Of a stretch of 64,000 bases of DNA, positions 3,086 through 57,146 are shown piece after piece. Both the position numbers and the translations under genes were made by a program. The DNA is from an uncultured Oscillospiraceae bacterium (lineage in GTDB: Bacteria > Bacillota > Clostridia > Christensenellales > CAG-138). The notes beneath the pieces were generated by a model that had not been told where the DNA came from, made no database searches, and saw only the letters and a list, made by a program, of their open reading frames with translations. The stretch's first letter is position 1. Every line of letters begins with the position of its first letter. The stretch lies in NCBI GenBank assembly GCA_964411275.1, contig CAYPKG010000009.1, forward strand, positions 1,730 to 65,729, given 5' to 3'.

Positions 3086-3374
3086 CCGCGCACCCATCCC
3101 TTGACCAAAAACTTCCAGGCGGCACCCCGGCAGGTGGCTCCGGCCAGGCGCCCCCGCGGCACATCGGACATTCTGCTTAATGCTGCTTCCGTCAGGATCT
3201 GACATGGTTCACAGACGCCGATTGCACGGGACCCAGCCCTCAACACTCCTTACCGGTACCAGTACCCCACAAGCCTTGGCCGCGGGACGGGAATTCAGCC
3301 CTGCTGTAGCGGATTGCAGGTACAGGGCACCGCTATCTCCCCGCCTAGCGCGGCAAACTGGTGATCGATAGAGT
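3086..3374 (-). ncRNA. ffs: Signal recognition particle RNA, long Bacillus/Clostridium type with Alu-like 5' domain (ends approximate)
   Basis: Minus strand reads GUCAGAUCCUGACGGAAGCAGCAUUAAGCAGAAUGUCCGAUGUGCCGCGGG. This parallels conserved SRP domain IV (E. coli 4.5S: GGUCAGGUCCGGAAGGAAGCAGCCAAGGCAGAUGACGCGUGUGCCGGG). The 5' part GGUGCCCUGUACCUGCAAUCCGCUACAGCAGGGCUGA resembles the Alu-domain helices. It has its own promoter, and there is no credible ORF in the 440-nt convergent gap. Confidence 0.78.
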
Positions 3375-18680: not shown

Positions 18681-18686
18681 AACATG

Positions 18687-18947
18687 CAAAAGCGTTGATT
18701 GGGACGAGTAGGGTCAAGAAAACCTTTGAAGCGAGCCGCGGCGGGTGCAAGCGCGGCAGGGAAGCGCGGCCTGAATATCACCCATGAGCGGCTGGGGAAA
18801 CCGGCGAAATCCGGAAGTAATCCAGCACGTGATCCGCACGTTATAGCGGGGCCATGAACATCATGGCGCATAAGAGAGGGCGCATTCGCGCCAACTCGGG
18901 TGGTACCGCGCGGCAATCCGCGTCCCGAACGGGGCGGGGATTTTTTT
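18687..18947 (+). promoter_or_regulatory. T-box riboswitch, Ile specifier (AUC)
   Basis: AGTA and GGGTGCAA Stem I motifs. Specifier context GAAU-AUC-A (AUC at 18777-18779). T-box AACTCGGGTGGTACCGCG (18893-18910, UGGU bulge for an A73 tRNA). Terminator ATCCGCGTCCC/GGGGCGGGGAT followed by T7 (18916-18947). Confidence 0.9.
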
Positions 18948-48173: not shown

Positions 48174-48207
48174 GAAAAAAATACCCCGCAGCGGGTTTGC
48201 TGCGGGG
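48174..48207 (-). terminator. Intrinsic terminator inside the aro operon 5' leader (candidate attenuator)
   Basis: Minus strand CCCCGCAGC-AAACCC-GCTGCGGGG followed by TATTTTTTT, ending about 35 nt before the DAHP synthase ATG. Confidence 0.7.
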
Positions 48208-48363
48208 TATGATTTGCGTCGGCTGTGCTGTTAAGCATGAAAGCGCGCGCATCTCCCAGGCAAACCCGAAAAACCCTTGCTAAAGATAAAAGCAAAGGTA
48301 AAAAACAGGTTGGCTGAAAAATTCCGTATGTTCATGCGCACCTCTCAAATCATTTCTTCGGCC

Positions 48364-48392
48364 ATCATAGCATAGATTTTTCTCGCTGTAAA
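48364..48392 (-). promoter_or_regulatory. sigma-A-type promoter of the aro operon leader
   Basis: Minus strand TTTACA-17 nt-TATGAT. Confidence 0.55.
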
Positions 48393-48452: not shown

Positions 48453-48535
48453 GGGCCGGCGGCTAGAAGAGCCGCAAAAAGGCGCCAGTGACGCCTTTTT
48501 AGGCCCCGGGTTTTCTCCGGAGAAGAAAAATCCTA

Positions 48536-48567
48536 CTGTTATGCAGTAATCATGATTACTGCTACAG
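48536..48567. repeat. 32-nt near-perfect palindrome (core 20 nt perfect) just 3' of the lyase gene
   Basis: CTGTTATGCAGTAATCATGATTACTGCTACAG; the core GCAGTAATCATGATTACTGC is perfectly self-complementary. Confidence 0.9.
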
Positions 48568-48587: not shown

Positions 48588-50036
48588 TTACAGGCTTTCG
48601 CCAAAATCTTTACGGAACTGCTCCATAAGCCTTTGCTGCCAGTCGGACGTGGGGGCGAGCCTGCCGAAGAAGAACCGCAATGTGCTTGGCTCCTCCACAA
48701 ACTTGAGACCGCCTATTAACCCTTTGTTCTCATGCAGCCATGTGATGCGGTCCACAGCGTACTTGACCTGGGACATGGTAAACACCCTGCGGGGCATGGC
48801 CAGGCGCAGAAGCTCCATGCTGGACAGAGGCTCCGTGCCGTCGGGCTCCCGCTGTTCGGACATGGTGCCCCGCTCCATACCCCGAATGCCGCCGGCGATG
48901 TATACCGCCGCCGCCAGCGCGCCAGCGGGATATTCATGCTGGTCCACATGGGACAAAAACTCCATGGCGTTCAGGTGGCAGCCAAGACCGCCCGGCGGTG
49001 TCACCACAGGCACGCCGTTTTTCTGCAACTCCTCACACATAAATGCGATAAACTGCGGCCCCTGGGAGATCACGTCCTCGTCCATCGTCTCGTCCAGGCC
49101 CACCGCAATGGCCTCCATCTCCCGCACGCTCATGCCGCCGTATGTCAAAAACCCTTCGAACATGGGCACAAGCTCCTGCATGCGCTCGTATAGCCCCTTA
49201 TCCCGCATGCAAATGCCGCCGCCACGGGCAAAGCCCAGCTTCCGGGCGGAAAAGTATATGATATCTATGTTTTCCGCCACTGCTTTTGTAATTTCCCGGA
49301 TACTCATGTCCTTGCAGGCTTCCTCCCGCATTTTGATGAAATACAGGTTATCCTGCAACAGGCTGGCGTCCAGCACCGTAAGAATTCCGTGCGCGTGGGC
49401 AAGCGAGCACACCTCCCTCACGTTTTCCAGTGAGAAGGGCTGTCCACCGATGAGGTTTGTGCCCGCCTCCAGCCGCACGAAGGGGATATTCTTAGCGCCT
49501 TCCTCCTCGATCAGCTTGCGAAGCTTTTCGATGTCAAAATTGCCTTTAAAGGGATGGTCGCTGGTGGTTTCCAACCCTTCGTCAATGACCAGTTCCTCTA
49601 CCCGGCCGCCCTTGCGGGTGATATGGGCCTTCGTGGTGGTAAAATGGTAGTTCATGGGTATCACGTTTCCAGGTTGGACGAAAGCCTCGGCTAAAATATT
49701 CTCGCAGGCACGGCCCTGATGGGCGGGAAGAAACAATGTGGTGCCGAAAATCTCGCCCACCTTACTTTCCAGCCTGGTAAACGTGGCGGAACCGGCATAG
49801 CTGTCGTCGGCTATCATCATGGCGGCCTGCTGCCGGTCGCTCATGGCGTTAACGCCGGAGTCCGTCAGCATATCCAGGAACACGTCGTCGTTTTTCAACA
49901 AAAACGTATTGTTGCCCGCTTCTGCGATGGCCGCAAGCCGCCGCTCCACCGGAGGCAGGTTGAGCTTTTGTACGATGCGCACCTTGTGCATTTCCAGGGG
50001 GATCCGTTCACCTGAAAAGAATGTTATGTTCGCCAT
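48588..50036 (-). CDS. tpl: Tyrosine phenol-lyase (beta-eliminating lyase family; TPL rather than tryptophanase by specificity residues)
   Basis: PLP-lyase fold (HQGRACEN, FSARK PLP-Lys). TPL-type residues: FTTT (Thr124 equivalent; Trpase has FDTT), GMERG (Met379/Arg381; Trpase has VEIG), LRFF (Phe448; Trpase has LRHF). AGGAG RBS before the ATG at 50036. Confidence 0.85.
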   Translation of the reverse strand: MANITFFSGERIPLEMHKVRIVQKLNLPPVERRLAAIAEAGNNTFLLKNDDVFLDMLTDSGVNAMSDRQQAAMMIADDSYAGSATFTRLESKVGEIFGTTLFLPAHQGRACENILAEAFVQPGNVIPMNYHFTTTKAHITRKGGRVEELVIDEGLETTSDHPFKGNFDIEKLRKLIEEEGAKNIPFVRLEAGTNLIGGQPFSLENVREVCSLAHAHGILTVLDASLLQDNLYFIKMREEACKDMSIREITKAVAENIDIIYFSARKLGFARGGGICMRDKGLYERMQELVPMFEGFLTYGGMSVREMEAIAVGLDETMDEDVISQGPQFIAFMCEELQKNGVPVVTPPGGLGCHLNAMEFLSHVDQHEYPAGALAAAVYIAGGIRGMERGTMSEQREPDGTEPLSSMELLRLAMPRRVFTMSQVKYAVDRITWLHENKGLIGGLKFVEEPSTLRFFFGRLAPTSDWQQRLMEQFRKDFGESL

Positions 50037-50099
50037 TGTAAAATACTCCTTTTTTTGTTGTTTTCGAAGGAGCCTTTTGGCGGCGACGCCTTCGCTGGA

Positions 50100-50417
50100 A
50101 GACAATAAAAAACGCTCGTCCTCACATGTTCTGTGAGGACGAGCGCCAAATCCCGTGTTACCACCTCAGTTTGCCAACGCCTCGCGACGTTGACCTTTTC
50201 GACTACGGCAGGAAACCTCCTGCGATACTCTATCTCGATAACGGGAGAAACCCGGCCCGGCCTACTGGAACATTCCGTTCGTTTGAAGGGCTGCTGTTTG
50301 CGTGTATTCCCGGGCCGTACCCTGCCGCCTTGCACCAACCGGCGGTTCTCTGAAGGGCCAATGGAGGCTTCCCTCCCGGTACTTCTTCGCAGTCATCGCA
50401 TTCGCTTTATTCGGTTG
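50100..50417 (-). promoter_or_regulatory. T-box riboswitch, Tyr specifier (UAC)
   Basis: Minus strand: GCGATGA...GAAGAAGTA, AGAGA and GGTGCAA Stem I motifs. Specifier context GGGAA-UAC-A (50305-50303). T-box AAACUGAGGUGGUAACACGGG (50172-50151, UGGU bulge). 14-bp terminator followed by U6 (50145-50107). Confidence 0.85.
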
Positions 50418-50423
50418 ATGAGT

Positions 50424-50451
50424 ATTATACCATTTGAATTTTGATTGTCAA
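50424..50451 (-). promoter_or_regulatory. Consensus sigma-A promoter of the tpl T-box leader
   Basis: Minus strand TTGACA-16 nt-TATAAT with an extended -10 TG (aTGgTATAAT). Confidence 0.7.
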
Positions 50452-56904: not shown

Positions 56905-57146
56905 TAAAAAAACCGTCCCTCAAAAGGGACGGATCATATACCGTGCCACCCAAATGGCCAGCGCGCACCAGCATGCGCCCCCGGGGTAACGGCCCGGGTC
57001 CCGTCAACGCCTACTTGTCGCCGTTCGGGTTGCCCTCACAAGCCCATTCAACGCGATGTCGGATACCGCATTCCCAGCTTTGGCGGCTCTCTTTGATCGT
57101 CCAGGCGCGTTTACTCTTCTTGTTCAGCGGTTTGCTGTTCTATTGT
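56905..57146 (-). promoter_or_regulatory. T-box riboswitch, Trp specifier (UGG)
   Basis: Minus strand: GAAGAGTA, AGAGA. Specifier context GAA-UGG-G (UGG at 57046-57044). T-box AUUUGGGUGGCACGG (56955-56941, UGGC bulge for a G73 tRNA). Terminator CCGTCCCT/AGGGACGG followed by U8 (56932-56905). Confidence 0.88.

Follow-up and report, generated by a model that had tools for sequence, protein, structure and literature searches.

The locus lies on the minus strand of a 64-kb stretch of DNA, hereafter the window, and consists of a promoter, a T-box leader and the gene for a PLP-dependent beta-eliminating lyase. The features, in the 5' to 3' order of this strand, are listed below.

50424–50451, minus strand: sigma-70-type promoter, TTGACA-16-(TG)-TATAAT, with 12 of 12 consensus matches and an extended -10 TG.
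50105–50405, minus strand: complete T-box leader (Stem I, Stem II/III region, antiterminator/terminator), from the RF00230 match and a terminator scan.
50285–50400, minus strand: Stem I, with the K-turn region GAUGA, the AGUA/GAA specifier loop and the distal motifs AGAGA and GGUGCAA, from covariance model R1.
50304–50306, minus strand: specifier codon UAC (Tyr), with the purine A50303 directly after it, from the Rfam structural alignment.
50128–50172, minus strand: T-box conserved sequence and antiterminator, GAGG[UGGUAAC]ACGGG...CUCGUCCUC, from the Rfam alignment and folding.
50105–50147, minus strand: intrinsic terminator, 16 bp followed by U6 (-30 kcal/mol, z = -7.96; terminator scan).
50046–50050, minus strand: ribosome-binding site AGGAG, 9 nt 5' of the ATG, read from the sequence.
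48588–50036, minus strand: 482-aa PLP-dependent beta-eliminating lyase of a distinct clade resembling tyrosine phenol-lyase (TPL), from profile, structure and residue comparison.
48476–48500, minus strand: probable terminator of the lyase transcript, AAAAAGGCG-TCACTGG-CGCCTTTTT, short and read from the sequence.

We compared the leader with the Rfam T-box model RF00230. The match extended from 50405 to 50132 and covered model positions 1–219, the full model; it scored 84.5 bits, with E-values of 8e-19 (region) and 7e-17 (whole window). The RF00230 gathering score is 93, which places the leader 8.5 bits under it. Because of this shortfall, the default Rfam gathering scan missed the leader and reported only a T-box at 18686–18930; the lyase leader was recovered in E-value mode. 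The first-pass annotation had described a consensus promoter, TTGACA-16-TGgTATAAT, followed by a leader with the hallmarks of a T-box, and both descriptions held: all 12 promoter positions matched at 50451–50424, about 20 nt before the RF00230 match begins, and the Stem I motifs GCGAUGA, AGUA, AGAGA and GGUGCAA were all found at their expected places in the Rfam structural alignment. The score against our own Stem I covariance model, R1, was 109 bits. Stem I of this leader also contains a small inserted hairpin, GGAGG-GAAG-CCUCC.

The structural alignment confirmed the proposed tyrosine specifier UAC and shifted its position to 50306–50304 from 50305–50303. The specifier loop reads GAA-UAC-A, is followed by the closing helix CGCA/UGCG, and is flanked by two covarying helices. 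The T-box core, AAACUGAGGUGGUAACACGGG, was likewise as described, except that it ends at 50152 and not at 50151. Folding showed terminator and antiterminator to be competing structures, with overlapping arms and folding energies of -30 and -9 kcal/mol, respectively, the latter for a structure with the 7-nt bulge UGGUAAC. The 5' arm of the terminator overlaps the 3' strand of the antiterminator, and both use CUCGUCCUC; the two structures are therefore mutually exclusive. The UGGU of the bulge would pair with a tRNA 3' end of ACCA, that is, with A73. The RNA element itself is an ordinary member of the known T-box family, and it is almost certain that the lyase is under T-box control by tRNA-Tyr.

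Two other T-boxes in the window served for comparison. The trpS leader (57136–56922) scored 82.4 bits against RF00230, also under the gathering score, and has the specifier loop GAA-UGG-G and the bulge UGGC, as had been claimed when it was set against the lyase leader. The claim that the lyase leader is a Tyr and not a Trp T-box thus agrees with its UAC specifier and UGGU bulge. The third T-box (18686–18930) has the specifier AUC and the bulge UGGU, and the 1040-aa class-I tRNA ligase encoded downstream of it is presumably IleRS. A search for tRNA genes in the window found none.

The ribosome-binding site and reading frame of the lyase begin about 70 nt past the leader terminator. The gene is probably monocistronic, judging from the short terminator at 48476–48500 and a separate promoter-like site beyond it at 48392–48364; the consensus terminator scan made no call at 48476–48500. 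In regards to the protein, the score against the NCBIfam "tryptophanase" subfamily model NF009709 was 595.7 bits, above the cut-off of 285, and the scores against three equivalog models were all below their cut-offs: 436.7 bits for TIGR02618 (TPL; cut-off 720.7), 341.5 bits for TIGR02617 (TnaA; 825.8) and 389.2 bits for NF053783 (tryptophanase; 750). The beta-eliminating lyase superfamily domain PF01212 is precomputed for the cluster of this protein, and the PLP-binding Lys257 is conserved. The closest PDB matches were TPLs, at 377 bits, and tryptophanases followed at 270–320 bits. The identity to Citrobacter freundii TPL was 41%.

We examined the active-site residues in an alignment that joined the 80 homologs from genomic loci to two references, C. 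freundii TPL and Escherichia coli TnaA. The residues that recognise tyrosine and phenol (Thr124, Met379, Arg381, Phe448 and Phe449) were identical in the window protein and in 79–80 of the 80 homologs, and the catalytic Tyr71, Lys257, Asp214 and Arg404 were kept to the same extent. Alignment with PDB 2ez1 confirmed the pocket and catalytic residues of the window lyase. The positions of Asp137, Ile396 and His463 in E. coli tryptophanase read Thr, Arg and Phe in the clade. Next to the cofactor, the clade has fixed the changes R217L, K256R, E69D, D258L, N262R/K, V283P and M288F. Among these, Arg217, Lys256 and Glu69 (the cation site) are conserved in both TPL and tryptophanase and read Leu, Arg and Asp in 80 of 80 clade members; in the PDB alignment, the DATR of TPL is DASL in the lyase. 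Arg217 contacts the cofactor in TPL and is Leu throughout the clade, and therefore the chemistry may differ from that of TPL. The first-pass annotation had called the enzyme a TPL. Its TPL-type specificity residues stood, whereas the assignment to canonical TPL did not, given the 41% identity, the TIGR02618 score of 437 against 721, and R217L. By these comparisons, the lyase is TPL-like, with a predicted TPL pocket, and lies outside the characterised TPL equivalog.

The clade is large and widely spread. When homologs are clustered at 90% identity, more than 120 clusters share at least 74% identity with the window lyase, and members are 66–81% identical over very distant hosts: Bacillota, Spirochaetes, Thauera/Azonexus/Brachymonas, Gammaproteobacteria, Actinobacteria, Planctomycetes, a methanogen and a Bathyarchaeon. 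Such identity across distant hosts implies that the gene has probably spread horizontally under strong constraint. The source records mostly label these proteins "tryptophanase", and our literature search found no characterised member of the TPL-like clade. In organisms with experimentally confirmed phenol production, a Clostridium among them, the TPLs are 70–99% identical to C. freundii TPL (PMC6424909); on sequence identity, these belong to another clade than the window lyase. Clustering of the gene neighbourhoods of 80 lyase loci from all phyla gave no conserved partner, such as a gene for phenol or serine supply or a transporter. The single recurrent neighbour "cluster" consisted of generic ABC ATPases and was discarded as a clustering artefact. 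Pfam searches of the lyase neighbours in Azonexus, Thauera, Brachymonas, a Bathyarchaeon and a Thermoleophilia MAG returned unrelated genes only.

The survey of related genomes proposed in the first-pass annotation showed that the pairing of T-box and lyase is recurrent. The T-box core GGUGGUAMCRCG was present 80–165 nt upstream of the lyase gene in 27 of 80 species-representative loci. All 27 were from Bacillota, in at least six lineages (Christensenellaceae, Oscillospiraceae, Peptococcaceae, Halanaerobiales, Dethiobacter and Clostridiaceae). The cultured Miniphocaeibacter massiliensis (Peptoniphilaceae) also has a T-box before the lyase, with an RF00230 score of 118.6 bits, the specifier loop GAA-UAC-A and the bulge UGGUAAC. 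The specifier was UAC in 29 of 29 leaders, namely those of the 27 loci, M. massiliensis and the window. The specifier context of the 27 loci was GAA-UAC-R in 24, GAA-UAC-C in one (L001, whose leader scored 93.2 bits against RF00230) and GAAA-UAC-A in two (L062 and L076). The UGGU bulge was present in 28 of 28 leaders, and an equivalent terminator hairpin with a U-tract in 25 of 28.

We aligned Stem I of 25 orthologous leaders on the canonical structure. Paired cells amounted to 89.8%, compared with 31–49% when the partners were slid, and compensatory changes occurred in 15 of 17 pairs; the observed values were reached by none of 500 shuffles. RNAalifold returned only a partial structure for Stem I in which AGUA was mispaired with the specifier, and the canonical architecture and pair counts were used instead. 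The covariance model built from this alignment recovered the 27 loci and the window at 31–109 bits; the lyases of the non-Bacillota loci and of about 8 further Bacillota loci had no match upstream. Upstream of the lyases without a T-box we also sought Tyr-rich leader peptides, with no convincing result, and saw no alternative signal of tyrosine starvation there. A search of 56 canonical-TPL loci (81–100% identical to C. freundii TPL) found no T-box; these are metagenome loci and form a partial control only. When C. freundii TPL served as the query of a homolog search, all sequences returned were from Citrobacter, and none were canonical TPLs from named Bacillota; the search also confirmed the TPL reference sequence as exact.

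The first-pass annotation had known of no described pairing of this kind. In agreement with this, the full-text literature search found no paper linking a T-box to TPL, tryptophanase or a beta-eliminating lyase, and the pairing is absent from TBDB, from Wels 2008 (PMC2494555) and from the RegPrecise RNA-regulon survey, including supplements; an earlier mention in tabular form may nevertheless exist. What is new is the class of gene regulated and what the regulation implies for a misannotated clade, the RNA family being already known.

The leader was compared with its closest known counterpart. The Bacillus subtilis tyrS leader is the founding Tyr-specifier T-box. It has the same Stem I with UAC and a following purine, the same distal platform motifs, the same terminator/antiterminator switch, and likewise a T-box sequence whose UGGU bulge matches A73 of tRNA-Tyr. 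The window leader differs from it in the extra hairpin of Stem I, in a score just under the RF00230 threshold and in its target, which is a beta-eliminating lyase rather than an aminoacyl-tRNA synthetase.

We infer the response to tRNA charging because the leader belongs to the T-box family. In the proposed mechanism, a class-I transcription-attenuating T-box for tRNA-Tyr would control one gene, that of the TPL-like PLP lyase. Transcription would begin at the consensus promoter, and Stem I would dock tRNA-Tyr through its UAC specifier (anticodon GUA) and through the distal platform for the T-loop. The antiterminator is weak (-9 kcal/mol) and the terminator strong (-30 kcal/mol); pairing of the 3' ACCA of uncharged tRNA-Tyr with the UGGU bulge would stabilise the former against the latter, and the polymerase would then read through into the lyase gene. 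Charged tRNA-Tyr would be unable to stabilise the antiterminator, so that transcription would end at the U6 tract. Induction of the lyase by uncharged tRNA-Tyr is well supported. The lyase would be made when tyrosine is limiting and is therefore placed in the tyrosine-supply regulon. The first-pass annotation had presented the locus as a tyrosine-degrading enzyme induced by tyrosine limitation; the induction design stood, whereas the word "degrading" derives from family resemblance only.

TPL is reversible and also catalyses the formation of tyrosine from serine and phenol. Reversal of the lyase reaction requires high concentrations of phenol, pyruvate and ammonium. Industrial synthesis of L-tyrosine and L-DOPA with TPL is cited in PMC12058496. 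We propose that the lyase would form L-tyrosine, in net terms, from environmental phenol, either by the reverse reaction (phenol + pyruvate + NH4+) or by a beta-replacement of serine or cysteine with phenol, which would be thermodynamically easier. The regulation makes most sense if the reaction runs from phenol to tyrosine, because it would be maladaptive to conserve a switch that induces the destruction of tyrosine when tyrosine is scarce. Some 30 Gram-positive anaerobes, distantly related to one another, share the pairing, and this recurrence suggests that the lyase makes or salvages tyrosine in them. A tyrosine-forming role as such is somewhat favoured, and we regard it as rather likely that the locus as a whole is a T-box for tRNA-Tyr controlling a TPL-like lyase that forms tyrosine from phenol. 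The carriers were found in gut, termite gut, digesters and sludge. These habitats are phenol-rich.

The locus was also compared with three known enzyme systems. Tyr T-box targets in PMC2494555 all have supply functions: tyrS, NhaC-type transporters, a Tyr biosynthesis operon and, in the Bacillus cereus group, phenylalanine-4-hydroxylase, the enzyme that converts Phe to Tyr. The hydroxylase is, like the lyase, of a catabolic-type family and was apparently recruited as a one-step source of tyrosine. Its precursor is phenylalanine, whereas that of the lyase would be phenol; the lyase is PLP-dependent and, unlike the hydroxylase, oxygen-independent, which suits anaerobes; and the hydroxylase pairing occurs in one species group, whereas the lyase pairing extends over several Bacillota orders. 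Canonical TPLs (C. freundii, Erwinia, Fusobacterium and Symbiobacterium; TIGR02618; PDB 2EZ1 and 1TPL) have the same fold and length class as the lyase and are identical to it at Y71, F123, T124, N185, D214, K257, M379, R381, R404, F448 and F449. They differ from it by the 41% identity, by a score of the lyase far under the equivalog cut-off and by its clade-fixed substitutions; they are at least 70% identical among themselves across phyla, are tied to phenol production, and had a T-box in 0 of 56 loci. TrpB acting alone (indole + serine to Trp) offers a functional analogy only: in both cases, one PLP enzyme would couple an aromatic ring from the environment to the three-carbon skeleton of an amino acid, and starvation for the product amino acid would control it. 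TrpB is of fold type II and the lyase of fold type I, and the two have no sequence relationship.

Four other explanations were weighed. The lyase could be an ordinary catabolic TPL whose T-box couples expression to starvation, for example so that leftover tyrosine or peptides yield pyruvate and ammonium, or whose T-box is a leaky constitutive leader. All TPL substrate and catalytic residues are kept, the nearest solved structures are catabolic TPLs, and the clade is found in protein-fermenting habitats (gut, digesters). We nevertheless consider this improbable: it would be self-defeating to destroy tyrosine at the very time when tRNA-Tyr lacks its amino acid, 28 genomes of several orders have kept the pairing and its invariant UAC, the known Tyr T-box targets are all supply functions (PMC2494555), and the TPLs of confirmed phenol producers fall in the other clade (identity to C. 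freundii TPL of 70% or more), with a T-box in 0 of 56 loci. A still slimmer chance attaches to the removal of a tyrosine analogue that blocks TyrRS (for example m-tyrosine, azatyrosine, halogenated or ring-substituted tyrosines, or D-tyrosine), where the block itself would induce the lyase. Uncharged tRNA-Tyr as the signal would fit T-box logic, TPLs accept ring-substituted tyrosines, and R217L, M288F and V283P lie near the cofactor or pocket and could shift the substrate range. Against this, no resistance or efflux genes were associated with the lyase loci, T124 and R381, which bind the phenol hydroxyl, are unaltered, and neither PMC2494555 nor the RegPrecise RNA-regulon survey contains a detoxifying enzyme under T-box control.

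The TPL-like pocket may instead mislead, and the protein may catalyse a different tyrosine-supply reaction, as yet unknown, with another donor or acceptor for beta-substitution, or act as a tyrosine-sensing or moonlighting protein. The lyase falls short of both the TPL and TnaA equivalog models, is only 41% identical to TPL and has lost the cofactor-contacting Arg217 clade-wide, and its 66–81% conservation over Bacteria and Archaea points to a function under strong constraint. Every TPL residue that defines recognition of tyrosine or phenol and the alpha,beta-elimination chemistry is, however, invariant, and we judge this explanation unlikely, if the least so of the four. A Trp-responsive leader before a tryptophanase, as suggested by NF009709 and by most source names, was rejected and has next to no probability: the specifier is UAC and not UGG, the bulge is UGGU (A73) as opposed to UGGC (G73) in the trpS leader of the window, the protein reaches 342 of the 826 bits required by the TnaA equivalog model, and the D137, I396 and H463 positions read T, R and F.

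The specifier of a T-box reveals directly, through regulation, the amino acid that a gene serves. The UAC specifier thus assigns "tyrosine supply" to a cross-phylum clade that is named "tryptophanase" and would otherwise be taken for tyrosine-degrading. We further propose, tentatively and with the balance tilting slightly the other way, that the clade is a dedicated "tyrosine synthase" that would make tyrosine in one O2-independent step from phenol and serine (or pyruvate and ammonium). Under this proposal, the enzyme would replace or accompany prephenate/arogenate dehydrogenase and would have spread horizontally through Bacteria and Archaea and become wired to tRNA-Tyr in Bacillota. If so, thousands of "tryptophanase" annotations would be wrong in both substrate and physiological direction. 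If tyrosine is formed from phenol, gut and digester anaerobes would have an unrecognised source of tyrosine, genome-based prediction of tyrosine auxotrophy would change, microbial phenol pools (relevant to uraemic toxins) would be tied to anabolism besides production, and the clade would offer a natural synthesis-biased TPL scaffold for biocatalysis. The cultured T-box carrier M. massiliensis makes the hypothesis directly testable.

The adjacent operon is aroF-aroB-aroA-aroC-pheA. The first-pass annotation had taken its pheA and the lack of tyrA as support for a synthetic role of the lyase, and no tyrA was found within the 64-kb window. This argument is weak because the operon is also without aroD, aroE and aroK, because aro genes were found near the lyase in none of the 80 related loci, and because the operon is separated from the lyase by the probable terminator, has its own promoter-like site and, from its sequence, appears to carry its own attenuator, composed of a Phe-rich leader peptide and a terminator.

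The homologs of the window lyase (48588–50036, minus strand) carried by the 80 species-representative loci L001–L080 share 66–81% identity between distant hosts, and these hosts comprise Bacillota, Spirochaetes, Beta- and Gammaproteobacteria, Actinobacteria, Planctomycetes, KSB1, a Methanobacteriaceae MAG, and a Bathyarchaeon. The lyase is a lone gene at every locus and lies in unrelated neighbourhoods, which suggests a single-gene function that has frequently been moved by horizontal transfer. The sources name members of this clade "tryptophanase", yet all of the specificity residues are of the tyrosine phenol-lyase type. In the lyase leaders of three loci (L003, L034, and L074), the T-box core and the strong hairpin are retained and the U-tract is broken up (GCGCTTCTTGCTTTC); in this subgroup, the terminator may be weaker or the expression platform may be of another kind.

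The region between the lyase and the aroF-aroB-aroA-aroC-pheA operon contains the following features.

48543–48562, minus strand: perfect 20-nt palindrome GCAGTAATCATGATTACTGC, just 3′ of the lyase stop codon
48396–48452, minus strand: long inverted repeat GCTGTAGCGCTAAGT...ACTTAGCGCTACAGC, with 15-nt arms and a spacing of approximately 27 nt
48392–48364, minus strand: promoter-like site TTTACA-17-TATGAT, between the lyase and aroF
ATG at 48335, minus strand: short ORF MNIRNFSANLFFTFAFIFSKGFSGLPGRCARFHA with a good ribosome-binding site, downstream of the promoter-like site
48210–48181, minus strand: 12-bp GC-rich hairpin followed by T7, immediately upstream of aroF

Phenylalanine accounts for 8 of the 34 residues encoded by the short ORF, and, judged from its sequence, the region at 48181–48392 (minus strand) looks like a candidate Phe leader-peptide transcription attenuator of the aro operon. 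No Rfam family matched this putative attenuator region, and to our knowledge this type of attenuation has rarely been described in Bacillota. The inverted repeat adjoins the −35 element of the promoter-like site; both this repeat and the palindrome could be bound by proteins or could form structures in the RNA or DNA.

Other structured RNAs were detected in the window and at locus L001.

Window 18686–18930, plus strand: Ile T-box (AUC specifier, UGGU bulge; 116 bits), upstream of a presumed IleRS (class-I tRNA ligase, 1040 aa)
Window 56922–57136, minus strand: Trp T-box (UGG specifier, UGGC bulge; 82.4 bits), preceding trpS
L001 264–533, plus strand: separate T-box (110.9 bits), approximately 5 kb upstream of the L001 lyase
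Window 3086–3353, minus strand: bacterial large SRP RNA (196.8 bits)

The trpS leader, like the lyase leader, scores below the Rfam gathering score, and default Rfam annotation would therefore miss two of the three T-boxes in the window. In regards to the L001 T-box, the specifier loop reads GAAGAACA and the specifier is probably AAC (Asn). Three ORFs of 725, 491, and 475 aa lie downstream, and the sizes of the latter two are suggestive of GatA and GatB; this T-box is unrelated to the pairing of the Tyr T-box with the lyase. The long form of the large SRP RNA is typical of Bacillota, and its presence in the window is consistent with the T-boxes and with a Clostridia-like host of approximately 60% GC.
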